DNA of 55,707 nucleotides, the filler included, from Porpidia crustulata (taxonomy: Eukaryota): the NCBI GenBank assembly GCA_964255105.1. It is 5 parts of 5 records of this genome, joined end to end, with 100 filler letters (N's around TTAATTAATTAA, not from the genome) between each part and the next. Parts side by side here need not be neighbours in the genome. Positions count along the whole stretch, not along the records: positions 33,490 to 44,550 come from CAXUWE010000703.1; 4 more parts are not named here. One strand, 5' to 3'. Of this stretch, positions 11,065-55,329 are shown piece after piece. Both the position numbers and the translations under genes were made by a program. The notes below the pieces were generated by a model. That model saw nothing but the letters and a program-made list of their open reading frames with translations. It was not told where the DNA came from and searched no databases. Every line of letters begins with the position of its first letter. Position 1 is the stretch's first letter.

Positions 11065-11164
11065 NNNNNNNNNNNNNNNNNNNNNNNNNNNNNNNNNNNN
11101 NNNNNNNNTTAATTAATTAANNNNNNNNNNNNNNNNNNNNNNNNNNNNNNNNNNNNNNNNNNNN
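11065..11164. other. Artificial contig spacer (N44-TTAATTAATTAA-N44)
   Basis: 100-bp N-run with an all-frame stop linker. Confidence 0.98.
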
Positions 11165-16323: not shown

Positions 16324-17178
16324 TCCTGGGCGATCGTGCAAGCGGACTAATCCGTGGAAACAATTCTCGCTAGCGGCACACTTCTGAGAAGAACCTCCAG
16401 TCTTCTTCAGTCTCCTCTTGTACGGAGTGATGTGTTGGAGTACAGGACGGTGATGTCAAAATGCTCTCGAGACTACAGTGGGAATGTGGAATCATCTTCT
16501 ACAGACTTCTTCACCCGAACAATTTTAACCAAGTACCATCGGGTGCCCGCAGCTGAGGCCTCAGAATCTTGATAGGAGTCAGAGAGTTCTGAGGATGCTT
16601 CACGTCAGTTTAAGTGTTACATGGATTTATGCACTGCTTTCAAAGAGCGATAGGCTTAATCCCACATCATTAGGTCGTGGGTTTCCCTAGGTGCCTTAGG
16701 TGCCCCAGGTGCCCTTCGACTGCTGAACGTCTTACACGCACAATAGACTCTCGAAAAGGGCACACACAGAGGGGGTTTCAGATTATTCCTAAGAGATGCA
16801 TGGACGCTAGGTAATTATCCCATTAATTTATCCCCCCACCCCTGAGACGATGAAACGCTCCGTGGCTCCGTTCTATATTTAAGCGAATCTTTCTAGCAAG
16901 CTCAGTCCAGCCCTATAGTAGCGGAAGTGTGAGAAAGTCTTCCGCGTGCTGCATGTATTTGTACGCTTGCTAGACGGGAGATGGCCCTGGGATGCTCGGC
17001 CGCCGAAAGGTACAACTACATTGATGCCTCATGTGAATCCAGTATGAAGCATCGGCCAACACATCACATCGACACAGTCGGCTTCACGGTCGGAAGGCGT
17101 TGTGTGATGACCTCTAAAAGCTACTCCGCATTGCTAATTACATACTCTTAGGGTTAGCACCCTGTTTACCAACTAGCA

Positions 17179-18854
17179 ATGTCTATGGCTACAGATGAAC
17201 CTACGTTTGAGGGGCGTGATGGTGAGAGCTCCGCAGCCGATAGCGAGGAAGAAAGAGAAGGAGAGGAAGGAGAAGAGGCGCCAGTGGAATCATTAGTCGT
17301 AGGGAGATCAAAGCGCGTGACAGCTGGCAATCGATTGTCGGCTCTTTTGGCGCAAGAGGCTGATGATGTTGATGATGCCGATGCTGATGATGATTTGGGG
17401 CTGCTGTTTGCGGAGGTTGACGAGGAAGAGGATATGGAGTTTGAGGAGGGCGAAGACGAGGATGCAGCAGATGCTCAACTCGATTCGTCGTCGGATGAGG
17501 AGGATCCAGGCCCTGCCAAAGGGAACGATGATCTTGAGGGCGAGAGGGAGCTACAAAGGCAAGATCGGGCAGAGCGGAAGAAACGTAAGGCACAGGAGAC
17601 AATAATAAGGCCTGGGCCAGCAAGAAAGAAAGCCAAATTTGACCACACTGCGACCGGAGCTCAACAGACGGCGCCTACGCCACATGCAAGGAAAAAGTCG
17701 GAGCGGCTCAATTGGCTACCGGGACCTGATGAAGGTCCCGTCCGTTCATCGTCGCGGAAGCAGACGGTAGAGAACAAGACGATCATACATGAGAGGATGA
17801 AGGAAAATGAGCAGCGTCGAGTCAAGCTGATTGAGACCATGGAAGCTGCAGCGAAACGCAAGGAAGCCTCGAAGCCGAAGGCTATCACTCAAGCTGGTCG
17901 AATGGCCGAGGCCGCCAGGATAGAGAAGAAGAACGCGAAGAGCCTGAATAGATGGGAGGAGACGGAGAAAAAAAGAGCAGAAGACCAACGGGCTAAGCTG
18001 GAAGCTTTACACAACCGGCAGCTCAGCGGTCCTGTCATCAGTTGGTGGAGCGGGATCGCAAGATGGGTTAACGGCAGGCTAGGCCAAGTGGGTGTTGAGG
18101 CTGTCAGGGAATCCGAAGCATCTGAAGGGGCCGTGACGAGAGGCAGTGATGAGAACATTATACCAGACAGCCCGACTGCAGATCGGTCAGAAGGCATTCA
18201 GCACCAAGATTCCGTGATGGCTGACATGGCCGCCTCCGTGCCACAACCCGCAGCTTCAGATCCGCAGCGGCCAGATCACGCTGAAAAATCCGAGCAGGTT
18301 GGATTTGCATCTCAGCAAGGGTCTCTAGGATTTCTTGATGGTATACATTTCTACGCTTCCCTGCCTGCGCCGCCACCACAACCGAGAGAACCCCCAGAAC
18401 CCAAATCACCACCCAGACCTACTGAAGACATTCCACCAACCCAGACAACTTTGAAGCCTCCAGCTGATGTTGTCGAATACTCGGTACGAAACCTTGTGCA
18501 GTTAGAGAACATTGACGCAAATGCGTTGAAATTGCCCGAATTACAAAGTCATATTCTACTGAAGAAGCGCAACTGTAGACCACCGAGTAAGTGATCATTC
18601 AGACCAAAGAGGTCAGCGGATTTGACTAAAATCGTACCACAGAACCTCTACAAGAGCAATGTGCCATCACCAACCAGCCGGCTAGATTTCGCGATCCCAA
18701 GACCGGGCTCCCCTACGCGGATTCCTACGGTTATAAAGAGATCCAACGACTCCAAGAGGGAGGATCCCGATGGAGCAGCCTCCTCGGCTGCTACGTGGGA
18801 CCGGTCGCCAGTGCTGCTCGAGGCGTGCCGGAAAGGTTCTTGAAGCCTGCATGA
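17179..18854 (+). CDS. VPS72: SWR1 complex subunit Vps72/Swc2/YL1
   Basis: YL1 N-terminal motif GRSKRVTAGNRLSALL, acidic tract, RSSSRKQTV, ITQAGRMAEAARIEKKNAKSL. After intron 18587-18642 comes the YL1-C motif CAITNQPARFRDPKTGLPYA; TGA at 18852-18854. Confidence 0.9.
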
Positions 18855-22227: not shown

Positions 22228-22327
22228 NNNNNNNNNNNNNNNNNNNNNNNNNNNNNNNNNNNNNNNNNNNNTTAATTAATTAANNNNNNNNNNNNNNNNN
22301 NNNNNNNNNNNNNNNNNNNNNNNNNNN
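22228..22327. other. Artificial contig spacer
   Basis: N44-TTAATTAATTAA-N44. Confidence 0.98.
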
Positions 22328-22959: not shown

Positions 22960-23283
22960 GCTCCAACCGTTGTCCAGCGCACGGTAAATCGATGATCCTT
23001 CGATTACCATCAACACTTTCAGCATGTCAAGCATGTCACACCGGAAATCTTCTGTACACTAGTCAAAGCACGACGAAGCTCTATCGTTGACTGACTAGAC
23101 ACGCGTGATGAGCTTTTGTGACGATCAACCCTAATTTCCTAGTTACTATTGGCAACAAAAGTTTGGTGTAGAATCAATCAATCATTTGATTTACAATGTT
23201 GAGGGCAAATAATTAAAACAGCGCTGCACCCAAGATCGTTATCTAGTAAAACAGCATCATGTCACTTTGCTAGAATTCTCGTC

Positions 23284-25031
23284 ATGTCTGTCCATGACAT
23301 TGAGAAAGATTCGAGTAGACCTGGGCATTCATCGTCTCAGCAGTCTTCGACGAAATCTAGCCCAGATGTTATTCCGATGCATAGTCCTGAAGATCCGGGA
23401 AAATCTTCAACGCCCCAGGATTCTGAAGTATCTGCGAAACCTCCGCTGTGCCCCAAAGCCAGCGCGATAGGGACTAACAATCCCGACTTTGAAGTGGATT
23501 GGGACGGCGAGGATGATCCCATGAACCCAAGGAATTGGCCGTTGTGGTACAAAGGCATGACCATAGGCTTCGTATCGTGGAATACCTGGGTCGTCGTTGT
23601 ATATTCCACATCGTATACGTCAGGGATAACCTTTATGATGAATGATTTCGACATCAAGTCCGAACCCGTCGCCACACTGGGCGTCACAACATATCTCATC
23701 GGCCTCGCCGTCGGTTCCGTTGTTCTTGCTCCTGTCTCTGAGATATACGGCCGACGTCCTGTGTATGTCGTTAGTCTGCTGATATCTATGCTTCTCATCA
23801 TTCCGTGCGGTCTGGGTAATTCTCTCACAGAAGTGGTCGTTGTCCGCTTCTTTGGCGCCATTGCTGCGAGTGCTATGGTTGCCAATGCCCCGGGGACACT
23901 CACTGACATCGTCAATGACGAGTATCGAGCACTGGTTTTTTCCATTTGGTCAATTGGACCCTTTAATGGCCCTGCATTTGGACCAATCATCGGTAAGCAA
24001 GCCATCAGTCGTTAAAGAATGTGGCTGACATCATGACAGGTGGCTTTTCAACAGAATATCTTGGTTGGAGATTTACTAATTGGATTGTGATGATGATTGC
24101 CGCTGTTGGATGGATTTTTGTCTGTATCCTGAAAGAGACCTACGCACCAGCATTGCTAAAGAAAAAAGCCAAAATCCGCAGAAAAGAGACAGGCGATGAA
24201 AAGTACTGGTCCCGCTATGATGATCACAAACTGTCCTTCGTGCAACTCATGAAGACTAATTTAAGCCGTCCCTTCGTCATGATAGTGACCGAGCCGATTT
24301 GCATTTTTTGGGATGTATATATCGGCATCATCTACGGCATCCTTTACCTTTGTTTTGTGGCTTACCCGATTGTGTTCACCGGGGTTCGCGGTTGGTCCAT
24401 TGGATTATCTGGTCTCTCATTCACCGGCTTGGCCGTTGGGTGCTTTTTTGTAATCTGCTCGGAACCTCTCATTCGGCGCATGATTAATGCGCATAAAGTC
24501 GATCCTGAGACTGGACGAGTACCCCCAGAAGCCATGGTTAGTGTGGTGTGTATTGCAGCCTTCTTGGTGCCCCTTGGTGAAATATGGTTCGCTTGGACTT
24601 GCACGCCGCCTGTTCACTGGATCTGGCCGATCTTGGCAGGTATACCTTTTGGGGCCGGGAATACCGCGGTTTTCATCTATTCGTCCAATTACTTGGCCCA
24701 GAGCTACGGGATATACGCTGCCAGCGCTTTGGCTGGAAACGTAGTCATAAGGTCCCTGCTGGGCGCAACCTTACCGCTTGCAGGGCCGGCAATGTACGCC
24801 AAGCTGAATCCCCATTGGGCAGGAACTTTACTGGGACTTCTCCAGGTGGCGATCATACCAATACCATTGGTATTCTATAAATACGGACATAAGATCAGGA
24901 TGCGAAGCACCCTAATTACGGCCATGCGGAAGGAGAGCGAGAGGCTGGAAGGGAAGCGAATTAGCGGGACTGTTGAGAGGGATAAAATGGAAAGAGAGGG
25001 GTTGGAAAAGGTTCCTTCGAACCTTGTATGA
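23284..25031 (+). CDS. MFS drug:H+ antiporter, DHA1 family (Tpo1/Flr1-like)
   Basis: VDWDGEDDPMNPRNWP, LAPVSEIYGRRPVY (motif A), GPAFGPIIG|GFSTEYLGWR across intron 23993-24039, ETYAPALL, LSRPFVMIVTEPI; about 12 hydrophobic segments. Confidence 0.92.
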
Positions 25032-28701: not shown

Positions 28702-30463
28702 ATGGCCTCGGCACTCACAGAGCAGCTGAGCAAGACCAAAATTGGGTCAGTCATCGCCAGTATCTGATATAGACTTTCCTTCTGATACAGCTTTACAGTG
28801 ATGGCCCCTCAGACAATAGTTGGAAGGAGAAATTGAAAGCCCCTCGCAAAGATGCTCGACCGCAAACAGAAGTGCGTGCATCATCACCTACCGGAAAGGT
28901 TGTGTTAATCGGCATTGCAGGATGTCACAAAGACCAAAGGTCTCCTGTTCGAGGACTTCGTCATCAAACGGGAACTACAGATGGGCATATTCGAGGCTCA
29001 ATGGTACGATCCTTCTCCAATTCAAGAGGAAACCATACCAATTGCTTTGGCGGGTCGTGATATACTAGCACGAGCAAAGAATGGTACAGGAAAAACTGGT
29101 GCTTTTGTCATACCTACGCTTGACAGGATCAACCCTAAGAGCAACAAAATACAAGCACTCATCCTGGTCCCAACCAGGGAACTCGCTCTCCAAACCTCGC
29201 AAGTCTGCAAGACTCTGGGCAAGCATCTCGGCATTAATGTCATGGTAACGACTGGCGGCACAGGACTCAAGGACGACATCATACGGCTTAATGGTACAGT
29301 CCACATTGTTGTGGGTACACCAGGCCGTATACTTGACCTTGCCAGCAAAGGTGTAGCTGACCTGACGGAATGTCCCCACTTTATCATGGACGAGGCGGAT
29401 AAGCTTCTCTCTCCCGAATTTACCCCAGTCATAGAACAACTACTTGCATTTCACCCAAAAGACCGACAAGTCATGCTTTTTAGTGCTACCTTTCCCATGA
29501 TTGTCAAGACTTTTAAGGTAAGCTGAACCTCCTATTTGGTCTCTTTGCAAGTTTTAACAAAAACAGGATAAACATATGAATGACCCCTATGAGATTAATC
29601 TTATGGAAGAACTTACGCTGAGGGGCATTACGCAATACTACGCATTCGTCGAAGAGAAGCAAAAAGTCCATTGCCTCAATACTCTTTTTTCAAAACTCCA
29701 GATTAACCAGTCTATTATCTTTTGCAACTCGACAAATCGAGTGGAGCTCTTAGCTAAGAAGATCACCGAACTTGGATACTCGTGCTTCTACTCCCACGCA
29801 AAGATGCTGCAGAGTCACCGAAGTCGTGTGTTTCACGATTTCCGTCAAGGCGCTTGCCGTAACCTTGTCTGTTCCGATCTTCTGACCCGTGGTATCGATA
29901 TTCAAGCGGTCAACGTTGTCATCAACTTTGATTTCCCGAACAAGGCTGAGACCTATCTTCATCGCATCGGTCGGTCTGGACGTTTTGGCCACATGGGTCT
30001 CGCCATCAACCTGATCAATTGGGAAGATCGATTCAATCTCTACAAGATCGAGCAAAAGCTTGGAACCGAGATTGAAGCGATTCCATTGAATATAGACAAA
30101 GCGCTATATGCCTATGATTCGCCCGATAATATCCCTCGTCCAGGCCCTCAACCTGGTCCAAGCAATGCAAACCAACGCCAGACATCAGGCCAGGACCAAC
30201 AAGCAACCAGAAACAGCCAACGAAATGCCCGGGGTACTACCAATGGCTCGCATGCAGGAAATTCTGGTCAGGGACGCGGTCAAGGTAGTGCAAGAGGCCA
30301 AATTCAGCAACATAACGCGTCCAGCTATCGAGGCAATCAGCGTAACCAGAACCAGCCACATGGCCAGCAGAAGGCACCTACCAAAGATCATGAGCAACAA
30401 AACCGACAGAATGGTAAGGTGCTACAGCAAGCAACCCCAGTGGTTGCCGCAGAGACCTCGTGA
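28702..30463 (+). CDS. DHH1: DEAD-box RNA helicase Dhh1/DDX6
   Basis: [60 protein letters not shown]. Three introns (two 5', one at 29518-29567); Q/N/G-rich tail. Confidence 0.93.
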
Positions 30464-33389: not shown

Positions 33390-33489
33390 NNNNNNNNNNN
33401 NNNNNNNNNNNNNNNNNNNNNNNNNNNNNNNNNTTAATTAATTAANNNNNNNNNNNNNNNNNNNNNNNNNNNNNNNNNNNNNNNNNNNN
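33390..33489. other. Artificial contig spacer
   Basis: N44-TTAATTAATTAA-N44. Confidence 0.98.
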
Positions 33490-34220
33490 AACTGGATCCA
33501 TTCTACGGCGAGGGCTCGGCCTGGGCGGTACGAGGGGGTGTTAGTGTGGGATAGAGGGTTACAAGCGGGTAGGGAAAGGGCCTTACACAATTGCACGACC
33601 CCAGCCTTTGCGGTACAGTACGCCGCCGACAACTCCGGATGATCGACGATTCTCGCGCTGATACTCGCCGTCGCCACGAAAGTGCCGTACGTGAAACCTT
33701 GCAGATTTCCGCCGTTGGCATCCGTACCCTCGGCCTTCTGGCGGCGCCAGTGCGATGCGGCCGCGCGGGCGCAGTAGAAGACACCGTCGAGGTTGGTGGC
33801 GATGACAGTGCGGTATTCGTCGAGAGAGCGGTCGAGGATGGTTCCTTCCTCGGGGAAGACGCCGGCGTTGGCGACGAAGATGTCGAGGCGGGCGTTGAGG
33901 TCGTGGACGGCGGTGTCGACGGCGGCGGCGACTTGCTGGGCGGAGGTTATGTCGACGCGGTAGGCTTTGCACTTGACGCCGTATTCTGTTTCGATCTCGG
34001 CGGCCCGGGCCGGAGCGGAGGGGCTGCTGTGGTACCAAATGGCGATGTTGGCGCCTGCTTCGGCCAAGGCATGGGCGACGGCGAGGCCGATTCCGGAGCT
34101 ACCACCGGTGATGATGGCGGTTTTTCCTTTGCAGAGGAAGAGCGGTAAGACTTTTTCTCCTTCGGGAGCGACGGTGTTGTCGTGGGCAAAGGCCGATCCG
34201 TGCCATGGTGAGCCTAGCAT
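33490..34220 (-). CDS. Short-chain dehydrogenase/reductase (mannitol dehydrogenase/sorbose or L-xylulose reductase-like), 3' truncated
   Basis: TGGSSGIG Rossmann motif, FVANAG, ATASIS, catalytic YCTAK, LAVEW. In-frame 66-nt intron 33521-33586; start position uncertain. Confidence 0.85.
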
Positions 34221-35120
34221 TAGATTAGTTGCTACGAGGAAATGTAGCAAAGAGATGGCTGATGGCGATGGACCGTAAAGTGGTAGGAATTGGTTCTGAT
34301 AGCTGAACTATCATTGAGCCCCGAATAACATCATTGAACTAGTGTGTAAAAGACAATTTACCTCTTTATCCCCGATTCATTTTTAACCAGTTATCGAACA
34401 TTCTCGCTTTCGACTGATAGAACCGCATTCAAGATAGTGCCATTACAGAATGAGTTTTGTCCATCCTGACTTTTCCAGGTCAGCTATTCCGAAGCTGCCC
34501 CTCAGTAAAACGCGATGCTGCATCATGCATCTGACTGGGTCGTAGATGCAGGAAAATGTATGCACATACAAAGATGTGCGAGAGTGCTCTCGCTATCCCA
34601 CGGATTGAAAAGTTTCTGCATTTGCCCGAAGAAGTCCGTTGGTTCACCTTCGCTTTCACGCATGTGAGTTGTAGAGAACCGCATTAGGATCCCCTAAATA
34701 TTACTTATGTAGACTAATGAACTCAAAGTGTTCCAATCTTCCTCTCGTGATCAACAATACAATATTTGGTAAGCTGAGGATTTAGTTCCTGCAAAGAAAT
34801 TCATCGTCGCTGAAGTGCTCGTGAATTACCAGAGGATGGTTTTTCAATAAAGAAAATCAAACTCTACTCTTACCTTCCCTAGACTGCGCAGGATATTGTC
34901 CATGTAATGCATCGAAGATAGATAAGGTTTGAAAACTCTGAAAGAAAGATTCCTTATGAGGGGTCCTGTAGTAACATATCACACTTTCTGTGGCATTGAG
35001 ATTTCGCACCGTCTCACGTATGTTTTGGTTTTCGGAGCTGATCACTATCTTGAAAATCATAGAAGTTTTTGCTCAAAATCTAATTCTTTTCTATAGCCAA
35101 GCGATCGTCTTCTAAGCAGC

Positions 35121-36149
35121 ATGGCTCCCTCAGCTATGCCGACCGAGCTAGCTAGTGACAGACATCTGGAGAAACCTACCAATGGCAATACACCATGTAC
35201 CGCATCAATAAGTTACTTCGATGCTACCACGGCTACGAAGGACGAAGTAGTCCGTTCGTTGATCAGAGCAGGTGGCTGTATTGTGCAGGGCATGGTATCT
35301 CCTCAGGACCTGACACAAATCGAAAAGGACGTTCGCCCGTTGCTGGATGCCGACAAACCCTGGGCGGGTTCATACTTTCCACCAGAGACTCGTCGAGCAG
35401 GTGGCCTTGCTGGCCGGTCTCCTACGTTCTTGAAAGCAATCATTCAGCATCTCCTCTATCAAGAGGTTTGTACAGAGCTCCTGACGTCAAGGGTCAAAAA
35501 CTGGTATGGTGCTGAGGCCTTTGAAAACGTATCTGCGCCACAAATGAATTCCGCGTTTGCTATATCCATCGGACCTGGGGCGGCACGGCAAGGCCTACAT
35601 CGTGACGATGGAAATTATCACAACCAATTACCAGCAATCACGGCGGAAGAGTACAATATTGGTCGGGACACGTCCGTCATACTCTTCGTGGCGGGGAAGA
35701 AGGTCACAAAAGAAAACGGGACCACGCGATTTGTGCCTGGCTCCCATCTGAAAAGTTCGACAGAAGCACCTAACGAAAGCAAAGTCGTGTTTGCCGAGAT
35801 GGAGCCAGGCGATGGGTTCATCATGTTAGCATCTACTCATCACGGTGGATCGGCAAACACAACACAGGATGACGAGCGCTTGATGTACGGTACCTGCATG
35901 GTCAAGGGCTTCCTCCGACAAGTTCGTTCCCTCTATCTCTGAGACCATGCGACGTATAATTAATCGGTGTCCCAGGAAGAGAACCAGTACTTGGCCTTGA
36001 GCCTAGAAACAGTCATGACGTTCCCCAAGGAGACCCAAAGGCTGTTAGGTTACGGCGTTAGCGACCCATGGACGGGTTGGGTAGACTTCAAAGATCCAGT
36101 TGAGCATATGCTCTCGAACGACGGGACCGAGAAGAAGGCCATCTGGTGA
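35121..36149 (+). CDS. Phytanoyl-CoA dioxygenase (PhyH) family Fe(II)/2OG dioxygenase
   Basis: FPPETRR, IGPGAARQGLHRDD (HxD), TKENGTTRFVPGSH, HHGGSAN, ERLMY, GFLRQ|EENQYL across intron 35922-35975. Confidence 0.9.
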
Positions 36150-37017
36150 TGTGCTACGGTTGTCATAAAACCCAGACAAATCAATGGAGCTTATCCAACT
36201 TCAAAGCTACCAGGCAGCTCTTCCACGTTCGATTTTCAACAATACCATTCAGCAGAGTGCGCTGTGCCATGCATAGTTGGAAATTCGTACTAATGCGGTT
36301 GAGACATAGTGCTTAGATGGGTACATAGGTAGCTTTGACTGTGTAGGCTCTCGGTGAGTGATTCCTAGTGGTGCTGGTATAGAGTAGGGTTGGTAGAGAT
36401 GCGCTGGCTGGCTTCTTCTGGAGAAAAAATCGTTAGTTGAGGGAGAGATTGAAACGCTAGTGACAGGAGAAGCTCGGTAAGCGGGAGGAACGACTGCGCT
36501 AGAGTAGGATACCTGTAATTTACGAGCAATGTGACAAACAGCAATGGTTTTTCGACTGCCGGAGTGTGTATTATTATATGAAAAGAGTGAGTGGGCAAAA
36601 ACCCTCTGCTCAATTCCAAGCAAGGGAGATGAAGATGGTAGGAACCTTCTAGAACATAAGGACGAGGATTTGATGCGAATCCGAGTGTTTGATCACACTA
36701 GATGGGGCAACGACAATTTTAGGCGTGGGCAAACAGAATCCTCAGTATCATACGCCGCAGTGTAACTATATGAGCGACTAAGCGAGAGATAAAATATCGG
36801 GAGCATAAGGATCTATTCGTGTGGCATTGGAAGGGACTTTCTACATAATATGATAGGTAGAGAACCCTGCTTCCGTCGTACTAGGAACATTTCAGCATCG
36901 GGAGAAAGACTTCGGTCCTCCTCCCTCATACTGACCAGGTCCCTCACATTCAACAAACAACATCTGAGGCTAAAGATCTAATTGCCGTGGTATCCGTAGC
37001 ATTCCTTGAGGAGGAAA

Positions 37018-38052
37018 ATGTCTTACAAACAAGACCTACCAGAAGCAGTTTCCGTCGCGATTATTGGATGTGGAAAACTTGGGACTGCACTGATACGTGG
37101 CTTCTTATGCCATGGTGAACCGCTGCGGAACGTGACACAATTGCCTCATCTGCCAGCGGTAGTCGCTCCGCTCGAGATTAGCCATATCTTTGCTACTGTC
37201 AGACAACAGTCCAGTCAAGAACGTGTCCAGAATTCAATCAAGATAGAACAAGCATCCATACTGGACTCAGGACACCGTGTGATGCAGGTAACCGTCCAAT
37301 TGCAGAGTCAAAACTGCCAGGCCATCAATGATGCGGATATCGTTATCCTGGGATGCAAACCCAGTGCGTACAAGGAAGTTCTTGGTAAGAAGGGAATCCG
37401 TAAGGGGCTTCTTGAAGGTATCAAAAGAAAGATTTTCATCAGCATCTTAGGTGGCGTCACTACCCATGACCTGGAGAACGCAATCTTCCAAGTGAGCCAT
37501 CAAGCATCCCTTAGTAATCAATATCCTTCGATATTGAGTAACTACCGAGATCGCTGCCTCGTCATCCGTGCGATTCCAAATATTGCTGCACGCATTCGGG
37601 AATCTATGACCGTCCTTGCACTTCCGGCCTCGTTCGATAATAACGAAGATGGGAAACATCGAAGAAGCATCGTTGATTTGTTGTTTCAACGCGTAGGTCT
37701 TACAAAATGGGTTGCAGAGAGTCAGATGAATCATGCGTCTGCTCTGTGCGCCTCAGCGCTTGCATTCTACACAAATTTGATTGCAGCAGCTGCTGAAGGA
37801 GCTTTGGGTAATGGGGATGGTTTATCCCAGGCAGATGCGCTTCAAATATCGGCCCAAGCTGCACGAGGTGCTTCTGGGCTCATTCTCTCCGGGGAGGATA
37901 CTAAGCACATCACGGATGAAGTAGCCACAAAGGGTGGATCTACAATGGCAGGGTTAAAAATCTTGGAGCAACGAGACTCTATCGCAGCAATTCGAGATGC
38001 CATTGAGGAGACCGCGATTGCAACAAAGGCCCTGGCATCATCACTACGGTAG
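37018..38052 (+). CDS. Pyrroline-5-carboxylate reductase-like (ProC/Pro3 family), divergent paralog
   Basis: IIGCGKLG, ADIVILGCKP, FISILGGV, VIRAIPNIAARIRESMT, ALCASALAF, VATKGGSTMAGL; intronless, with insertions relative to canonical Pro3. Confidence 0.88.
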   Translation: MSYKQDLPEAVSVAIIGCGKLGTALIRGFLCHGEPLRNVTQLPHLPAVVAPLEISHIFATVRQQSSQERVQNSIKIEQASILDSGHRVMQVTVQLQSQNCQAINDADIVILGCKPSAYKEVLGKKGIRKGLLEGIKRKIFISILGGVTTHDLENAIFQVSHQASLSNQYPSILSNYRDRCLVIRAIPNIAARIRESMTVLALPASFDNNEDGKHRRSIVDLLFQRVGLTKWVAESQMNHASALCASALAFYTNLIAAAAEGALGNGDGLSQADALQISAQAARGASGLILSGEDTKHITDEVATKGGSTMAGLKILEQRDSIAAIRDAIEETAIATKALASSLR

Positions 38053-38616
38053 ATATCGAGGGGCGATAAGCAGAGCGTAAGGGAGACTTAATTTGTTGCG
38101 CCATAAATGACCTGATGAGAAGACTTTCTACTTTGACAAAGTGTCCTGTGGTCTCAAAGCAACGTTTCTTCAGATAATCTGCGCTTGGAAGGGATGGTTC
38201 TTTACAGCTCCCTAAAACGCTGCGGAAAAAATGGGTCCTCAACAGCATTTTTCTGAAGATAGATTTCGGATTCCGAATTCTCATGGCAGCAAACGAAGGC
38301 CGACACAACGTCCACAGAACATCGCCTTTGATAGTCCGCGTTTGGTCAACGCTACAAATAGTTGTAGGCCATCTTAAATATAGTTCTCCGCCACAGTCGC
38401 TAAGAATTGAGCCATTGAGAGGAGGAAATTGGCCGTTGAGAATCTCCTACAATAATGAGCACTGTGACGCCGGGAAACAGTTGTTCCTAGTCATACTGTT
38501 GTGCTACTACAGCAGGATAACACGGAATTCCGATCCAAACTAATAAATTCGTTACCGCAAACTTTTGTTATATGCAACGAAACCCAAGTACATCAATTTA
38601 TGGTCCCCGAGGCCTT

Positions 38617-39739
38617 CTAATATGCCGAGAGTAACCTTTGCTGGTGGTACTCTATAGCCGTCACATCCTTATACTTTGCGCTCATATCTTGAGAAACAAA
38701 CTGCCTCAAAGGCCCAACAGAAGCATTTCGATCTGCCTTACAGAAATATGCTATCGAATATCTCTCAGGAAGTGTACCGGTCTCCTGGCCCTCCATGTTG
38801 CTCGGAATATTGACTCTGTGAAGACCAGCGGGCAGACGGTCGTTGGTCAACCGCTGCAAAGTCTCGCTTACGTTGACGACCATCTCGGAAGGGGCGCCAC
38901 ATTCAACTCGTTGAAAAGTTCCCCGTGCCTCTCGATCTTCAAATTCGAGGCCGCCCACCTTATCCTGGAACAAAAGTGTGATGACCCCTAAATCAAAGTG
39001 TGGCCAGATACGACTTACGCGGCCGCTTTTGATTGTTTCAATGTCAATGGCTGGATAATGATTGAATCGAAATTCACTGGCGTTGTGGTTGTGCGTAATC
39101 TTATCCAGGAATGTCCCGTGTGGTAGCTCTAGAGCCATTTCCAATGCTTTCATAATCTGCGTACTGGCCTGTTCCATCTTCCCGAACGTGTCCTCCATGA
39201 AAGAGCGAAAGCCAGGCAGTACGTCGTCACTGGGCCATTTATTCGGATGTTCAGTATCAGTCGTCGCTCCTTGATCAAAGTGTTCCTTCAACTCTCAACA
39301 AACGATGACCGCGAGGCTTTCATTCGGCATGACTCACCCTCGCATCACTCAATTCTTCCGTCGATTGGCACTTTAGTAACCCTTTTCTGTACAATTTAGA
39401 GCTATTCTCAGCCCCGACTCGACTCCAACCCCTTTGTGGATCAGGCCCGGGATGGTGTGCAATTCGGAGTTTCTCTTCTGTCTGGATACGGAAGAAGGAT
39501 CTGTTCTGTCGTACCCAAAGAATCTGTGATCAGCTTTTGATCACGTCGTGTTTCTATTCGAAACATATTGGGCATACCCATTCAAACAGGTCGGCAACGG
39601 CCTCGTCCGAGATTCCATGATTGACGAGTTTAACAAAGCCGTGTCTAGACAAGCTCTGAAGTAGGTCTGAAGCTAGTTGCGCCTGTTGTGAAGCATTGCC
39701 CCTGGTGAAAAGCGATAAATCGAGTGTAGGTAAAGTCAT
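38617..39739 (-). CDS. IPNS/DIOX_N-type Fe(II)/2OG oxygenase (resembles the HtyE/GloF proline-hydroxylase type)
   Basis: LPTLDLSLF..HGFVKLVNHGI, HHPGPDPQRGWS, EHFDQG, NKWP, FNHYP, HFD (HxD) GVITLLFQD, LHRV, RYSIAYF; two introns (about 39506-39577 and 39288-39338). Confidence 0.88.
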
Positions 39740-41044
39740 TGTGAGATGTGAGTATCGCGAAAAGCCTAACATCAAAGAACCCGACAACTCATGACGCTGG
39801 TTCTCCTAAGCTTCTACGAGCCCCTGATATATAAGGCACGATAGCGCAGAGATCGCCGACATGGTCCGGACTTGTCCCTAATTGAATATACTTTTCGTCA
39901 AAGCATCGTGAGTGGAGAAGCAATGCTAGAACCAATTTCATCCTCAAAAGCCTGCGTTGTGCAGACGGCTCGCTTCTGTTGTAGCTCCCCATTGTGTGGA
40001 CTGCGTCTTTTTCCCCATATGCGTGGATTAAGCTTCAGACGGCGGCCTGGTAGGCTACTTAGCTCAGCATGTCCGAATTGCCACAGTATCGGACTCTAGG
40101 AGGATGTACGCTGCAAGATACAGTTCTGCTAAATTCCGCTCCTCACATCGGATCAAACGCCGAGAAGGTTAATTGTTCTCTTCGAATTATCTGTTGCATT
40201 TATCTGAACCAAATGTCGTGCAACTTCTGACCGGAAGATTATGCACTCTTCAGCTATGATTCAATTTAAAAGACTTATATGCATAGTTCTCCTAGTACTG
40301 CTGATTAAAGCAGCTAATTCGGTGATGTTCAGTCCCAATAGGCTCTGGGGGGATCTCGGTCTTACTCGGACAAAGATAATCGACACGAATTCTAAGCTGT
40401 ACCTGGCACTAGTATGCAACATATAACCCTATTTTACGCGCTCAGTGGAAATCTCAAGTTGAATGAGGGGTTTTAGTGATCCTCGCGAAAATGTCTGTCG
40501 GAGCTGCGATGCACAATGCGGAGCAGGCCAACGGACTCAACTTCAAATTCTCATATCAGACTCTACCTTGACTCATCAGGCCTCTAGGTCGACCGAAGAC
40601 GCCCGCTACTCATTGCTTTTATCGGCCTGATGACCCAATGGTAGTTATTTCTGGTAGCCTGCGCAAATCCACAGTGAGCATCTTGAGAGAGAAGTATCGG
40701 CTATCAAATGTATGATGGCCTAGCACCGAGGCTACGATCGCGTCAAGCCTTCTCAGCCAGGATTCATGTGCACAGAAAAGCCATCAAATTATCTCAGCTT
40801 CGGTCATTGCGTGATTGATGCTAGGATGATAATCGACAGGATGGCATATGCTTTTCACGATCGCATCTGCAGTTGGGAGGAGGTGTGCCTTCCGCTTGTG
40901 TAGCAACGTATCGTTTTCTAAGCGTGAGGCTTGATAGACCAGCTTTGGGGCACTGGCAATATTTCTTATTGGCCTCGAGTCAACGATTTTGACACCAAGA
41001 GATTCGACTGTAATTGAACTTCTCACGGGACGTTGTCCCTTATT

Positions 41045-44000
41045 ATGGGTTCTCTTTCACAGGACATCCCAGACTATGTGCTTGAGCATTGCCACTTGCA
41101 CACTTCTGCAAGACGAAATACTAAATCCCATCATTTCGAGGTTGTCAATCTTTTTGTGGACGGGAGCGTTTTCGTGGGTCTGAGAGAACCGCCGAAATGC
41201 TTCGAGAAGTTGGTTCAAGATGCTTGGGCACTCCTTCTACGCAGATATCTTGGGAATGACACCGTCTCTTTTGCAGTATTGGCTAGTCAAGGAAACGACC
41301 TCCAGGGCAGAGGCCATGCCAGGTGCATTGCTGCCGTTGAAGGCTCCGAATCTCGGATACTGCAGTATCACATTCCCGCACAATGCCTGTTGCAAGACAT
41401 CCGTCCAGTGATATTTCGAGCATACGCTGGACACGTAGGTGAAAGACTACCCATAAATACAGCAATCCGTTTATCAAATTCCACGTCCTCAAGGCGTGGC
41501 CAGCGAAACAGGGAGACAGCTACCTGCCCAGACTCCAATGATGATAGAATAGGGCCCCTTGTGAGTCTAACACCAAATATACCCAGTCTTACAATGCCGC
41601 CTCCAATAGCAGCATTGATTACATCTCCCAAGTCTCGACTTTAATTCACATGAACGGATTTGAAAAGAAAAGTAGTAGCTGTGCTGTTTCATTGTTGCGC
41701 TGATTCTACCTGAAGGTTGCTAAGTGGAGATTCTTGTGTTTCTTTCATTTTTATCTTTGCTGTCATATGTAATTCAGCATGCTACAAGTATTGTATGAAG
41801 GACTTCTGGAGCCATATCAACAAGTGAAAGAGTGACTTTCAGTGAAAGAGCATATTTCATAGAAACTAATGAATTTGCAAGCTAACCTTTTGCTGCAGTT
41901 CCATATTATTTTGAATCTAAGTACCTCTACTAAAACGCCTCCTACGTTATCCGTCAGCTATGTTTCTCCAAAGATTTCTGAGCAATATGCAAACTCGGTT
42001 GTGCGTACTTTTCAAAAGATCCTAGCAAGCGTAGTCCTTTGCGGCGACGGAGAGGTGGGTCGCCTCGATTGTGTCGACGATGAAGACAAGCAGAAAATGG
42101 TAGCTTGGAATCCAAAGTCTCCATACACCCAGATGACCTGTGTGCACTACCTCGTTGAAGCTGTGGCTCGCGCGATGCCCAGCTCTGAAGCAGTGTGTGC
42201 CTGGGATGGGACTCTAAGCTACTCCCAATTGGATGCGCTGTCATCTATTGCTGCCCAGCGATTGATAAGCGCCGGTGTTTGTTCGGGAGTATATGTGCCG
42301 TTTGCGTTCGAGAAGAGCGTATGGACTGTGATAGCTACCTTGGCAATACTAAAAGCAGGGGGTGCATTTGTTCCGCTCGATCCCACTCATCCAAGGGTGC
42401 GGCTCCAAGAGATATTAACAAGTATACGAGCAAATGTTATCGTCACCTCGAACACCTTTTCCTCGACATTCAAGGGTATTGTGAAAAATATTGTCATTTT
42501 ATCTGCGCAGACGATTCTGCTAGACAGAATTGCAGACGGGAATGACACTCACCTCCCTGTTGTCCAACCGAGTGATCCTATTTTTGTCTTGTTTACCTCG
42601 GGGTCAACTGGTCAACCCAAGGGAATGATCCACGAGCATGGGGCCATTTGCACTCACGCTATTGCCCATGGAAAAGCCATGAATTATCAAGGAGCTCGGG
42701 TGTTACAATTCGCTGCACATACTTTTGATGTTGCCATCATGGACATCTTCACCACACTGATATATGGCGGGACCGTTTGCATCCCATCAGAGGAGGATCG
42801 GCGGAACAATATCACCAGCTTTATTTGCGATATGAGAGTCGACCATGCAATTTTAACTCCATCATTCGCAAATCTCATTGACCCGGTCGATGTCCCAACC
42901 CTTAAAACTCTCGCCATCGGTGGAGAGGCTCTTACGCGAGATCGCATACAAAGATGGGCCCATAAGGTCTCGCTGATCCAGATTTACGGTCCTGCAGAAG
43001 TTGGAATTTGTTTACTAACTCACATGCATCCAGAAGAGACCCTCCCTGAGACTGTTGGGTACTCGCTGAACAACTCTTCGTGTTGGCTCGTAGATCCTGA
43101 AAACGCTAATCTTCTTGTTCCAATCGGTGCCGTTGGGGAACTGCTTATCGCCGGTCCCAGCTTGGCCAAAAGCTATCTGAACGACGATGCCAAAACCCAC
43201 TCGTCCTTTCTTACTAATCTTCCCTGGGCAAATGCACTTGGACTAAAATATCAACGCTTCTATAGATCTGGAGATTTACTCCGGCTTAACGTGGACGGTT
43301 TCGATGGTTCTTACGATTTCATCGGTAGAAAAGACACTCAGATTAAACTTCGTGGCCAGCGAATAGAGACTGGCGACGTCGAGCACCACATAGCTAGCAT
43401 ACCGGGGGTGGCGGTCTCTATGGTCACACGACCCAAAGATGGATGCTTCACTGGTGAACTGGTCGCGGTTGTAGAGATGCGTAGCTCACTTTCATCGCAA
43501 GTCCGCAATGAGCCCATCACTTTAACCCCAGACCCAACCCTATCCATAGAGACGATCAAGGAGCATCTTGCCAAGACCTTACCGGCTTACATGTGGCCAG
43601 TTGCGTGCCTCGTAATCACTAGCATGCCTTTCGTGGCATCTATGAAGATCAACCGGAGATTGGTCGATACCTGGTTGCAAGAGATGAGATCACGGCCCTC
43701 CGAGGTAGTAAACAATACACTACAAGATTTGAAGAATGTGCCACTCGATCACAGTGAGGTTACAGCGAATGCAATCAGTGTCAAATATGCCGAGCTAGTG
43801 GCATCTAAGGACGACAGCTGGCGGCAGAAACTTGAAGGTTCGGACTTTTGTCTCCAGAAGGCTGGGATAGATTCCATCCAGATCATCTCGCTATCAATCT
43901 TCTTGCAAAAGGAGTATTTGGTGAAGATACCAATGTACCGGCTTTTGAGCCCAAAGACAACGATTCGAGACTTGTCATACCTGGTCGATCATCATGATGG

Positions 44001-44550
44001 GAAATCCGCCGTCTGCGATGAACCGATATCATTCAATGTTCTTGAAGAGTCACGGGTCCTTGGTGAAAATTTGTTCAAAGAACTCGAGTCCTATAATTCA
44101 GGGATGGACCTGTCGTCACGGCCTGCAACCCGCAACATCGTGCTGACGGGTGCGTCTGGGTATCTAGGTTCGGCGATCCTACAAGCCCTCATGAAAAAGC
44201 CAGACATTACGGTATTTGCACTAGTCCGCTGCTCTACTGAGTCCAAAGGACTTCAACGTATCGTAGATGCTGCTGTCGAAACTGGCTGGTGGCAGGACGC
44301 CTATGCCTTAAGGATCCAGGTCTGGAAAGGAGATCTCACTGCAAGCAATCTCGGGATTTCCGACCAGCAACTGCGACAGCTTCATGGCACAGACATGGAA
44401 CCCCATGCTTGTATCCACGCCATCATCCACAACGGAGCCAAAGTCCACTACAGCTCCGACTATGAAACCCTCAAATCCACAAACGTCCACCCCACCCTCA
44501 CCCTACTCACCCTCACCGCCAACGCCCCCAACCTCTCAACCCTCATCTAC
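41045..44550 (+). CDS. NRPS-like enzyme: vestigial C-domain fragment, adenylation, thiolation and thioester reductase (R) domains; 3' truncated
   Basis: Exon 1 has AWALLLRRYLGNDTVSF (C-domain remnant); phase-0 intron 41561-41898. A domain: LSYSQL, LKAGGAFVPLDP, FTSGSTGQPKG, FDV, YGPAE, GELLIAGP, YRSGDL, GRKDTQIKLRGQRIE. T domain: GIDSI. R domain: LTGASGYLG, HNGAKVHY. Confidence 0.92.
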
Positions 44551-44650
44551 NNNNNNNNNNNNNNNNNNNNNNNNNNNNNNNNNNNNNNNNNNNNTTAATT
44601 AATTAANNNNNNNNNNNNNNNNNNNNNNNNNNNNNNNNNNNNNNNNNNNN
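44551..44650. other. Artificial contig spacer
   Basis: N44-TTAATTAATTAA-N44. Confidence 0.98.
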
Positions 44651-46491
44651 GTCTTTCTTCTCGGGAGGGGGTTTGTGGGTGAAGGAGTCGGTATTGATGT
44701 CGCGGTGGATCCCTTCGGCGACGAGGACTTTCTCGATAGGATTGCGGTCGTCGGTGTCGAGGCTTCGGGCTTTGTGGGTGTGGGGGGTTTTGCCGCGGCT
44801 CAGCATGCTTGTTGGAGGTTGGACCATTCGCGATTCGCGACCTAGGATTCCGTCCATGTGGAGAGGTCTTTTGTGCGCGATGCTGTTTTTGAATCTCTTG
44901 ACGGCTTTCATCTGTGACGCTTTAGAGAAATCCTTGTGTTTCTTAGAAGCATACGTACGAGTACGAGGATGTTGCTTAGGTTTCCCGTGATGGCGTTGTC
45001 CTTTTCTGCCTCTGTGGGGGGCTCAACCAAATCTGACGTATTCTCTTCTTCTGAGAGCAATGGATCGGTGCCCTGTCTGGTAAGCCATGGGTGGTCCTTG
45101 CGCGTTCATTAGTTGGGATTCTTCACTTAGATGGCGAGTCACCTACGCGGAGCTCTGGCATTGTGATCCTCTTTGTAGGATCTTTCTCTAGTAATCTGTA
45201 GATCAGATCCTTGAAGTCCTCAGGACAGTCTGGGGCCAGATCCACTTTGTCGTTCTTGATAGACTCGTACAATTGCAAAACACCGGCTCGCTCGAAAGGA
45301 ATTTGACCGAAACGTAAACAATATAGCGTGACTCCCATGGACCAGATATCAGCGGCTCTTCCGGAGATATCACCGTGCTTTGCAACACATAGTTCTGGTG
45401 GAAGAAACGCAGGCGAACCAGCCGATTTAGCCGTCTTCATTTCCGACTTCTTTTCAAACATCTCCGATACGCCAAAATCGGAAATCTTCAGAACATCATC
45501 CTCTGTCAACAGCAAGTTATCCGGCTTAATATCCCGATGTACAACGCCTTGCGCATGTAAATACTCAATGCCCAAAACCAAATCTCGAAACCAACACCTG
45601 CATCTTTCATCGTCATACGGGTCTGCTTTTTCGTCCATGCCGACCTTCATTATCACACCCTTTTTGCACATTTCCAGAACCATGTAAAGAGAGTCTTCGT
45701 CCGGATCGTCCAAAACCTCAATCAAGGAGACCAAGTTATCATGGTTTAGCTTCTTCATGATCGCAATCTCTTCTTTGATGAGGTAGAGGGGGTTGCCGTC
45801 CTGCTCTTGGTCATGAACTTCCGACGCCAAATGCCGATTCGTTGGAGAGCCAAAGCCCATACTGGCACCTAAATGGCCTGTCCTTCGAGCTGCATGCGGC
45901 CTTCGTAGTATATTGGATTGGGCACGCTTTCGCAGCCGCGACTTTGAGAACTCCTTAACGGCCTAGCAATGGCTGGTTAATCATAAGATTCTAAAGATAC
46001 TAGAACTCTTTTACAGCTATGATTCCACAAGAGTAAAGCAGGTACTCTGAGCATCATCTGGGAGTTCTTACATATTCGCTGCCGTGCTGGTCCACTGCCA
46101 GGTGGACAGCTCCGTAGGAACCCCTTCCAATTTCTTGCTTAATGCTATATTGATTAATCCTATGGACAGCGCCGCCGTCATCCTCACTGTTTGAATACTC
46201 CGAGTGCGCGTGCAATGTCTCCTTGACTTGCCTTGCGCTTGAATGTTTGCGGTGATGGTGCCTTAAAGGACTTTCGTAGGCGGGGGACGACCTATCAGGC
46301 CCGACCATGTTTTAGTCAATGACTAGCACTGGAGACTTTGGATCTCTTTGCCCGTACATGTGTCTTATATTTGGCGGTCGAACGCCGTCTGCTGTGCTAG
46401 CTATATCGAGCTCGATGCCATGGGATGTTAGGATTCCCGCCTTTGCAGCCTTTTCGTCAATGGAGTCTTCCCTTCCGAGGTTGGTAGCCAT
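44651..46491 (-). CDS. Calcium/calmodulin-dependent protein kinase kinase (CmkC/Ssp1-like), 3' truncated
   Basis: IGRGSYGAV, AVKEFSKSRLRKR, EEIAIMKKL, HRDIKPDN, DFG, GSPAFLPPE, DIWSMGVTLY, basic CaM-binding-like MKAVKRFK; about 4 introns. Confidence 0.9.
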
Positions 46492-53729: not shown

Positions 53730-55329
53730 ATGAAGCTTACTTTCAAGGTATGTTGATTATTCCAAGCCGAGACCATCAAATAGATGCTAATACCTCTCCT
53801 CTATCCAGGATCTGAAGCAGCAGAAGTTCGTCGTTGAAGCTGAACCTTCTGAAACGGTATGCTCTTATAATCCTAGAAAGTTTCCCGGAACAGAACGGCA
53901 GCAGAAGGTACGAGGCAGATCAACTAACTGCAACCGCCGTAACGCAGATCGGAGAAGTAAAGGGGAAGATTCAACAAGAGAAAGGGTGGGAAACTAGCAC
54001 GCAAAAACTCATATACTCTGGTATGTGCTCATACATTGGATCTATGATGGATCTTAGATCCGCTAACCAATCTGTCTCTCTACAGGCAAAATATTACAAG
54101 ATGCAAACACCGTGGAGTCATACCATATCGAGGAGAAAGGGTTCATAGTCTGTATGACGTCAAAGGTTTGAAATCCAATCTTCTTCAGCATGTGTATCGA
54201 TGTTCTGATCGAGGAGAATAGCCTAAAGCAGCCCCTGCCAGTTCCTCGGCTGCTTCCTCCGCCAAGGCTCCTTCAACTCCTGCTCCCCCTCCTATTCCCG
54301 CTTCCACACCCGTACCACCAGCCGCGCCAGCTCCTGCATCAAGTACCACTCCAAACGCCCCAGCTACACCATCACCTGTCCCCGCAGCGGCGACCGGTAC
54401 AGAGGAAGGGAATTTCAACGGCCCATCAGCTCTCACTCTTGGTGCACAACGTGACTCCGCAATCGCGAATATGGAGAGTATGGGTTTCCCGAGAGCAGAT
54501 ATCGATCGAGCCATGAGAGCGGCGTTCTTCAATCCGGATCGTGCTGTAGAGTACCTTCTCAACGTTGGTCTTTCTGAGATTCATCATCAATGAGTAAAAT
54601 CCGCTAAACAATCCCAGGGCATTCCTGAAAACATCCAACAAGAACAACGGCAAGCCCGCGGTGGCGCAGCCCCTGCCGCCCAAACCACCACAGCTGGCAC
54701 CCTTCCCACCCAAGCTGCAGCCGACTCTTCTACCGAACCTGACCAACCCATCAACCTCTTTGAAGCCGCGGCCCAAGCCAATCGCGGATCCGGAGCTACC
54801 GGAGGCTCCACTCGCCCTCGCGGCCAAGCCTCCGCCGCCGCCGCCGGTCTAGCAGGTCTCGGAACTGGCGCCGCCGCGGAAGGAGCAGCGGCCAATAGCC
54901 TCGGCAACCTCGATTTTTTGCGCAACAACCCTCAGTTCCAGCAACTTCGCCAAATAGTACAAACGCAACCGCGGATGCTTGAGCCGATTTTGCAGCAGGT
55001 GGGCGCGGGAAACCCGCAGCTGGCTCAGCTGATAGGACAAAACCCGGACCAATTCTTGCAGCTGCTGAGTGAGGATGCGGATGGGGATGCCCCGATGCCG
55101 CCGGGAGCGCAGGAGATTAGCGTCACGGAGGATGAGAGGGCTGCCATCGAGAGAGTATGTGTCACCTCTTCCCACCAACACGTTCATGCACAAGATTGAC
55201 AGTGAGCAGCTGTGCCTTTTGGGATTCGAGCGCGACCTTGTCATTCAAGCATATTTTGCATGCGACAAGAACGAGGAGCTGGCGGCGAACTTCTTGTTCG
55301 ATCAACCTGACGACGGCGAGGAGAATTGA
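53730..55329 (+). CDS. RAD23: UV excision repair / proteasome shuttle protein Rad23
   Basis: UbL (MKLTFK|DLKQQKF..QKLIYSG|KILQD), UBA1 ([35 protein letters not shown]), XPC-binding ([18 protein letters not shown]), UBA2 ([27 protein letters not shown]); six introns. Confidence 0.95.

Follow-up and report, generated by a model that had tools for sequence, protein, structure and literature searches.

The genome of the lichen-forming ascomycete Porpidia crustulata (assembly GCA_964255105.1) contains, on contig CAXUWE010000703.1, five neighbouring genes that probably constitute a small secondary-metabolite cluster, as judged from their sequences. These encode a UcsF-type Fe(II)/2-oxoglutarate (2OG) dioxygenase, a divergent pyrroline-5-carboxylate (P5C) reductase paralogue (P5CR), a reductase resembling a nonribosomal peptide synthetase (NRPS-like), a PhyH-family dioxygenase and a short-chain dehydrogenase/reductase (SDR). 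The reading that we favour, with a rough probability of 0.42, is that the first two enzymes form a methylproline cassette and feed the third—a truncated C-A-T-R (condensation, adenylation, thiolation, reductase) protein—and that the PhyH dioxygenase and the SDR tailor the product.

The pathway would run as follows. The UcsF-type dioxygenase would oxidise the delta-carbon of L-isoleucine (or L-leucine) to an aldehyde, which would cyclise to a methyl-delta1-pyrroline-5-carboxylate, and the P5C reductase paralogue would convert this to 3- (or 4-) methyl-L-proline. The truncated C-A-T-R enzyme would then adenylate and load the hydrophobic imino acid and release it with NAD(P)H as methylprolinal or methylprolinol, after which the SwnH1/NvfE-like PhyH dioxygenase and the carbonyl-reductase-like SDR would hydroxylate and reduce the pyrrolidine product. 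The formation of methylproline is proposed by analogy with characterised enzymes; methylproline as the substrate of the reductase, and the roles given to the PhyH dioxygenase and the SDR, are guesses from cluster logic.

Gene content and layout

The window—the whole stretch of DNA that was analysed, 55,707 bases in length—is made up of five contig pieces of ~11 kb with N spacers between them. Positions 33490-44550 correspond to one whole contig of 11,061 bp; both of its ends are true contig ends, and both cut genes, the SDR gene at one and the NRPS-like gene at the other. Gene models were derived from stop-to-stop open reading frames (ORFs), tblastn searches with relatives, and inspection of splice sites. 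An earlier note on this DNA had placed the same five gene types on one 11-kb contig around two divergent promoters; all five types were confirmed by Pfam, and two divergent intergenic regions were found. The features of the locus are:

33490..34223, minus strand: classical short-chain dehydrogenase/reductase, cut by the contig end (Pfam adh_short, E 1.8e-30)
34224-35120, no strand: intergenic region flanked by the divergent SDR and PhyH genes (from the gene starts)
35121..36149, plus strand: PhyH-family Fe(II)/2OG dioxygenase, 324 aa (Pfam PhyH, E 5.5e-21)
37018..38052, plus strand: divergent pyrroline-5-carboxylate reductase paralogue, 344 aa, single exon (Pfam)
38617..39739, minus strand: UcsF-type Fe(II)/2OG dioxygenase, 332 aa (Pfam, PDB match, splice model scored against the relative P0266)
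39740-41044, no strand: intergenic region flanked by the divergent UcsF-like and NRPS-like genes (from the gene starts)
41045..44550, plus strand: NRPS-like reductase, truncated C-A-T-R, with the contig end inside the R domain (tblastn of full-length relatives covering both exons, Pfam)

The SDR and PhyH genes diverge, as do the oxygenase and NRPS-like genes, and the P5CR and oxygenase genes converge, their 3' ends separated by 0.56 kb. None of the five reading frames is interrupted within the contig, and the nearest named relatives of the NRPS-like and P5CR proteins are, among the matches listed, all from lichen-forming Lecanoromycetes. The general idea of the earlier note, an imino-acid-derived metabolite, held up with this gene content and layout.

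No regulator or transporter was recognised by Pfam on the 11-kb contig, and two small intergenic ORFs that were scanned, 40208-40426 (plus strand) and 40784-41056 (minus strand), have no Pfam match at E<=10. The three upstream regions have a single 8-mer in common, against a mean of 1.4 for shuffled sequences, and none at 9 or 10 nucleotides; CGG-N-CCG pairs occur in these regions at one site only. Among sequencing runs, one contains the sequence and is probably its source; two further runs from that study lack it, and no RNA run is listed as containing it.

A putative methylproline cassette

The UcsF-like gene comprises exons at 39739-39578, 39505-39338, and 39285-38620, the last being followed by the stop codon. 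Its product matches 2OG-FeII_Oxy in Pfam (E 2.8e-15), with DIOX_N on the two upstream exons. When the last exon was searched against all PDB sequences, UcsF (PDB 9ktp) was matched with an E-value of 3.5e-65 and 223 bits; the second-best solved protein is a thymine dioxygenase at 95 bits, and isopenicillin N synthase (IPNS) reaches 38 bits. Identity to UcsF is ~52% (116 of 224 aligned residues counted), and the iron triad (HxD...H) as well as the 2OG site (RxS) align with those of UcsF (WPHFD, GLHRV, RYSIAY). A scan of 1.84 billion representative proteins yielded 3173 relatives at E<=0.001, only 91 of them at E<=1e-30, and by bit score UcsF would rank within the best ten; we therefore regard these proteins as a small subfamily with UcsF inside it.

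In PMC8233208, UcsF is described as converting L-isoleucine to (4S,5S)-4-methyl-delta1-pyrroline-5-carboxylate, and DetxE, 42% identical to UcsF, as catalysing the same reaction; (3S)-methyl-L-proline is formed in vitro both by DetxE with either of two fungal P5C reductases and, from L-Ile, by UcsF with a P5C reductase. By analogy, the window enzyme would oxidise the delta-carbon of L-Ile or L-Leu, and its sequence does not discriminate between Ile (giving 3-methylproline) and Leu (giving 4-methylproline). EcdK reportedly takes the latter course, from Leu to 4-methylproline. The earlier note had both oxygenases decorating a ring, which for the UcsF-like enzyme is unsupported; this enzyme more likely makes the ring.

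One relative of 1371 aa, P0342, was considered as an oxygenase-reductase fusion and rejected: it consists of a UcsF-like oxygenase merged with an MFS transporter and DUF6604, and is probably a merged gene model. It hints at a transporter adjoining a UcsF-like gene elsewhere.

The P5CR protein matches P5CR_dimer (PF14748; E 4.6e-17) and F420_oxidored (PF03807; E 1.9e-09) in Pfam. Against the proC model TIGR00112 it scores 162 bits, under the cutoff of 196.75, and so does not reach the level of a housekeeping ProC. Among 5.8 billion proteins, a word-based search picked out 23 relatives other than the protein itself; ten have E<1e-30, and the best, at 54% identity, is from Icmadophila ericetorum. 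For a housekeeping P5CR, closer matches in many fungi would be expected, and it is because of the sub-cutoff score and the small number of relatives that we take the window P5CR to be a rare specialised paralogue and not the housekeeping enzyme. Its GxGxxG motif and GG(S/A)T loop align with those of human PYCR1. In PYCR1 this is the substrate loop, which binds the carboxylate, and its retention suggests a pyrroline-carboxylate substrate rather than a pyrazine.

The UcsF-type oxidase and its dedicated P5CR neighbour, with 0.56 kb between them, are best read as a putative methylproline cassette. UcsG, in the UCS1025A cluster, is likewise of P5CR type, and a P5CR is also present in an HC-toxin-like cluster of Monilinia. 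A cluster-encoded P5CR beside a methylproline-using synthetase is described, as phqD, in preprint 10.64898/2026.01.29.701693. The earlier note had offered two routes, and we favour its second—the oxygenases and the P5CR make a hydroxy- or methyl-proline that the synthetase-like enzyme reduces—because the oxygenase that it called IPNS-type is a UcsF relative and UcsF and DetxE make methylproline together with a P5CR. Methylproline formation is thus supported by the UcsF similarity, whereas the second half of that route, methylproline as the substrate for reduction, comes from cluster logic.

Architecture and substrate pocket of the NRPS-like reductase

The NRPS-like gene consists of exon 1 (41045-41560, 172 codons), an intron of 338 nt (41561-41898) with a GTGAGT donor, a CTAAC branch site, and a CAG acceptor, and exon 2 (41899-44550); the gene starts ~850 bp ahead of the large ORF. 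Judged by its full-length relatives, which have 1250-1330 aa, the window protein lacks ~230 aa. The intron is long compared with the 52-72-nt introns of the neighbouring genes. The truncated condensation-like N-terminus lies mostly within an exon of its own (41045-41898 region), and the nearest database relatives, P0001 and P0002, are annotated without exon 1.

Pfam identifies AMP-binding (E 7e-59) and NAD_binding_4 (E 6.8e-26). Model positions 1-133 of the 258 of NAD_binding_4 are on the contig, with a glycine-rich nucleotide motif at the start of the R domain; the YxxxK motif is present in the consensus of the relatives. The PP-binding match is weak (16.7 bits, against a cutoff of 20.8; E 0.0087), GIDS, a phosphopantetheine-site motif, occurs in the translation, and many of the relatives carry PF00550. 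The amino-acid adenylation model TIGR01733 scores 334 bits, over its cutoff of 317, and motifs A3, A7, A8, and A10 can be read in the translation.

For the N-terminus, the window protein and 13 full-length relatives supplied their first 220-350 residues for a profile (of 14 candidates one was dropped, the anchor motif being missing), and this was searched against six-frame ORFs of multimodular NRPS loci from metagenomes, which served as condensation-domain references. The matches of the profile lie immediately ahead of A domains (best domain E 2.2e-17); at locus L011 the matched segment coincides with the final ~240 residues of a Pfam condensation domain of 430. Weak Pfam Condensation matches at model positions 379/387-455 are seen in two NRPS-like relatives; exon 1 itself has no Pfam Condensation match at E<=10. 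We designate the architecture truncated C-A-T-R because the profile matches only the C-terminal half of the condensation domain. The catalytic His motif of such domains sits in the N-terminal half, and the remnant is presumably non-catalytic. The earlier note had described an A-T-R enzyme; the additional 5' exon makes of it a truncated C-A-T-R.

Residues of the substrate pocket were assigned with GrsA numbering, the core motifs serving as anchors, and the ten are D-V-M-I-A-G-I-I-C-K. None of the 121 aligned rows (the window protein and the best 120 of 3243 NRPS-like matches) lacks Asp235 or Lys517. Beyond Asp235 the pocket is hydrophobic throughout, with small residues at 299 and 301, and 84 of the 121 rows carry one of four pocket variants that differ only at 239 (I/M/F) or 331 (C/V). 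Such a pocket points to an alpha-amino or imino acid of hydrophobic character as the probable substrate, without singling out methylproline, and it disfavours Glu and aminoadipate since it has no basic residue for a second carboxylate.

Among the same best 120 matches the relatives include those of Toensbergia leucococca (71% identity), Circinaria calcarea (62%), and Xylographa (61%). Across a large NRPS-like family that spans Lecanoromycetes, Leotiomycetes, and Xylariales, and in which no characterised member was found, the pocket hardly varies, and a search of the full-text literature with the ten-residue pocket codes returned no match.

Lys2, the aminoadipate reductase type with which the enzyme might be equated, has an N-terminal extension that is a C-like remnant of similar kind, and the Lys2 model TIGR03443 aligns along almost the whole length of the NRPS-like protein. 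P5CRs, moreover, can reduce piperideine-6-carboxylate (P6C). These two points favour the first route of the earlier note, read here as the formation of a semialdehyde from Glu or alpha-aminoadipate by the A-T-R enzyme, its cyclisation to P5C or P6C, conversion of this by the P5CR to proline or pipecolate, and hydroxylation by the two oxygenases. We nonetheless consider that route very improbable: with TIGR03443, whose equivalog cutoff is 1030 bits, the window protein reaches 225 and its full-length relative P0010 reaches 290; the hydrophobic pocket offers the distal carboxylate no basic residue; and a UcsF-type enzyme would already supply a cyclic imine from Ile.

The PhyH dioxygenase and the SDR

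The PhyH gene has two exons, 35121-35921 and 35976-36149, separated by an in-frame intron of 54 nt (35922-35975); the relatives P0146 and P0147 align over both exons. The best solved relatives are NvfE (116-119 bits), SwnH1 (111-112 bits), and SwnH2 (77 bits). The protein is about one-third identical to NvfE and SwnH1, as estimated by eye, and the HxD motif and distal His align. In preprint 10.1101/2024.09.26.615303, SwnH1 and SwnH2 are responsible for indolizidine hydroxylation and have a part in iminium formation.

The SDR gene begins with an ATG at 34223; exon 1 extends to 33587, an intron spans 33586-33521, and exon 2 runs to the contig end (splice sites placed by eye), where ~80 C-terminal residues are lost. 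The motifs TGGSSGIG and YCTAK are present in the translation, and the best solved relatives, at 106-113 bits, are yeast carbonyl reductases and 3-quinuclidinone reductase.

Linkage in other genomes

Linkage elsewhere was judged indirectly, from matching contig sizes and locus tags across three protein searches; the rows compared were the best 120 of 308 PhyH matches and the best 120 of 3243 NRPS-like matches. Three of the five closest P5CR relatives (P0122-P0126) are on contigs of the same size as one of the nine best NRPS-like matches: P0123 with P0007 (230504 bp), P0126 with P0003 (10611 bp), and P0125 with P0009 (13279 bp). The last pair are the Circinaria calcarea genes Q9187_003249 (P5CR) and Q9187_003247 (NRPS-like), with one gene between them, as in the window.

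A FastTree tree was built from 75 rows (the window protein, P0001-P0070, P0097, P0098, P0101, and P0114; the other 46 matches were left out). The four NRPS-like rows that are linked to a P5CR all group within a clade of 26 rows (support 97), and none groups in its 43-row sister clade, which contains Lepraria, Stereocaulon, Cladonia, and Teloschistales, many of them on long contigs. Both Xylographa sequences, for which no P5CR relative was detected, also fall inside the 26-row clade. The recurring core consists of the NRPS-like and P5CR genes, the gene between them being presumably UcsF-like, while the PhyH and SDR genes look like variable accessories.

It seems improbable that the five genes are chance neighbours or a decaying remnant with no joint product. 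Although the linkage of the PhyH and SDR genes is not conserved and no promoter motif is held in common, every reading frame is intact, the P5CR/NRPS-like linkage recurs in three other assemblies, and the two rare specialised paralogues that stand tail to tail 0.56 kb apart are a known functional pair.

An alternative that we regard as unlikely, though less so than a chance grouping, is that the contig is a fragment whose cassette feeds, in the manner of UCS1025A, paraherquamide, and destruxin biosynthesis, a polyketide synthase (PKS)-NRPS or a multimodular NRPS beyond one of its ends, the truncated C-A-T-R enzyme having a separate role. The known UcsF-type cassettes serve large synthetases (PMC8233208), and a fragment would fit with genes cut at both contig ends and with the lack of any Pfam-recognised regulator or transporter between them. 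Against this, a P5CR relative is repeatedly found on the same contig as a member of the NRPS-like family, and the other four pieces of the window neither continue the locus nor hold a synthetase: the cut R domain and the SDR are not continued there, and Pfam searches of 80 ORFs from these pieces gave unrelated families, mostly of housekeeping types, with no synthetase and no PKS domains.

Metagenomes were also scanned. With the P5CR, 44 pattern matches were obtained and none was confirmed; with an 8-row NRPS-like alignment, 14 loci were found at 33-43% identity, which is not close enough for synteny. As seen by tblastn, these 14 loci hold multimodular NRPSs, and SDR, PhyH, P5CR, and UcsF-like genes are not nearby. 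Five near-identical loci (L002-L006) have two A-domain matches ~1.5 kb apart, the second running into an R-domain match; on the A and R matches alone they fit a dimodular A-T-C-A-T-R synthetase, with 35-39% identity to the window enzyme. Such a synthetase could resemble an ancestor of the truncated C-A-T-R family.

Weighing the proposed pathway

Several observations weigh against a pathway in which the cassette feeds the reductase and the PhyH dioxygenase and SDR tailor its product. The principal one is the constancy of the pocket, which extends to clades without a linked P5CR: the near-invariant code is found in the sister clade and in Leotiomycetes and Xylariales members, for which no linked P5CR was seen. 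A code held family-wide accords no less well with a common proteinogenic substrate than with methylproline. We also take the code to be unlike bacterial proline codes, and its I-C-K ending to be typical of aromatic or aliphatic ones.

Linkage provides further counter-evidence. The earlier note had staked its cluster on synteny in other genomes, and what was found is partial: P5CR and NRPS-like genes are together on three other contigs and PhyH and NRPS-like genes on one, this being the single case among 119 listed PhyH relatives (P0238, 61% identity) that matches the contig size of an NRPS-like relative (P0023; 25093 bp), but none of the 119 is on any of the three P5CR-linked contigs. PhyH relatives at ~50-56% identity are widespread in Ascomycota (best 120 of 308), so the PhyH family is not specific to the cluster. 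The Xylographa relatives of the reductase (61% identity, on contigs of 727 kb and 39 kb) have no counterpart among the 23 P5CR relatives. Finally, as the contig is only 11 kb long, a further core synthetase may lie beyond either end.

The pocket is also the starting point for the alternative that we rank highest, possible if doubtful, in which the reductase takes Leu, Ile, Val, or Phe and the resulting alpha-amino aldehyde goes on, by cyclisation or dimerisation, to a cyclic imine, dihydropyrazine, or piperazine, as with enzymes of the LnaA, HqlA, and AsaC type. Imine or carbonyl reduction would then fall to the P5CR-like enzyme and the SDR, and the 2OG enzymes would tailor the product or make a second building block. 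This agrees with a pocket code that is conserved whether or not a P5CR is linked, with the hydrophobic lining and small residues at 299 and 301, and with the solved relatives of the SDR, which reduce carbonyls including that of the cyclic amine ketone 3-quinuclidinone. It would leave the tight UcsF similarity and the dedicated P5CR with no known joint role, and the GG(S/A)T loop of the P5CR points to a pyrroline-carboxylate, not a pyrazine.

Significance

Lichen fungi are known mainly for polyketides. To our knowledge, hardly any work has been done on their nitrogen-containing metabolites and NRPS-like clusters, owing to slow growth and difficult manipulation. The Porpidia crustulata locus offers a small defined gene set in which only ~230 reductase residues and ~80 SDR residues are missing. 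It bears on whether a UcsF/P5CR methylproline cassette can feed a stand-alone reductase, on the role of the large conserved truncated C-A-T-R family in Lecanoromycetes and Leotiomycetes, and on pyrrolidine hydroxylation by SwnH1-like dioxygenases, which would be useful for glycosidase-inhibitor-like scaffolds. If the substrate is an ordinary amino acid, it would be one more cluster of piperazine or pyrazine type.

A bolder and rather doubtful version of the methylproline pathway is that a clade of lichen fungi keeps a pathway of its own, with a reductase of Lys2 architecture acting on Ile-derived 3-methylproline and a SwnH1-like dioxygenase leading to a hydroxylated methylprolinol. Relatives are found in Circinaria, Toensbergia, Icmadophila, and lichen metagenomes. 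The product class would be an iminosugar-like pyrrolidine alkaloid, and we know of no report of such alkaloids from lichens.

Other contigs in the window

The joints between the pieces (11065-11164, 22228-22327, 33390-33489, and 44551-44650) each consist of two 44-N runs around a TTAATTAATTAA linker, and no feature should be read over them. The following features, identified by Pfam, are on other contigs and are unlinked to the cluster:

11879-15205, minus strand: Pumilio/RRM protein
17158-18591, plus strand: YL1 nuclear protein
23203-25028, plus strand: MFS transporter
28909-30460, plus strand: DEAD-box helicase
45126-45962, minus strand: protein kinase
54222-55196, plus strand: Rad23-like UBA/XPC-binding protein

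Another contig has, at 6334-9611, an ORF with NPHP3_N (NACHT-associated) and after it one of 603 aa with ankyrin repeats, a layout like that of fungal NLRs.

Comparison with known systems

Searches of the full-text literature turned up no description of this gene combination, nor of a methylproline cassette that feeds a stand-alone reductase (subscription journals and MIBiG lay outside their scope). The individual resemblances are nevertheless of several kinds.

One is to UcsF and UcsG of UCS1025A, where a UcsF-type dioxygenase is likewise accompanied by a cluster-encoded reductase. The expected chemistry, from Ile through 4-methyl-P5C to 3-methylproline, is the same as for UCS1025A and for destruxin/isaridin, where DetxE works with housekeeping P5CRs (PMC8233208). 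In those systems the imino acid enters a PKS-NRPS or a six-module NRPS, whereas here a single-module reductase is the only such enzyme on the contig; a PKS-NRPS core as in the ucs cluster is present neither on the contig nor on the other four pieces of the window.

In the paraherquamide system the synthetase PhqB also ends in a reductase domain. There too a dedicated P5CR, phqD, is part of an alkaloid cluster, according to preprint 10.64898/2026.01.29.701693. PhqB, however, is dimodular and couples beta-methylproline, formed from Ile, to tryptophan, whereas the Porpidia locus encodes a single A domain, lacks a functional C domain, and shows neither a prenyltransferase nor indole chemistry.

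With Lys2 the window enzyme has in common an N-terminal C-like extension ahead of A-T-R. It differs in its sub-cutoff score, its hydrophobic pocket, its clustering with tailoring genes, and its membership of an uncharacterised lecanoromycete and leotiomycete family.

The swainsonine (SWN) clusters are similar in having a SwnH1-related PhyH enzyme, imino-acid loading followed by reductive release, and imine reductases, and the SWN-like clusters of some Xylaria carry a P5CR-like gene (PMC8403587). In contrast to swainsonine, neither the KS/AT/KR domains of SwnK nor SwnN/SwnR-type reductases are found in the 11 kb of contig searched, and the likeness is tempered by NvfE, an unrelated meroterpenoid enzyme that scores as well as SwnH1. 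The earlier note had seen no match to swainsonine, loline, or peramine, and we concur: there is no KS or AT on the contig, and nothing like loline or peramine was found.

LnaA/LnbA, HqlA, and AsaC are single-module fungal A-T-R enzymes that release amino aldehydes on the way to piperazines and pyrazines. Their clusters resemble the present one in pairing a single-module A-T-R enzyme with a nearby SDR, and are not known to carry a methylproline cassette. Each part of the Porpidia cluster belongs to a known family, and the whole is a recombination of known modules, a variant of known fungal alkaloid pathways.

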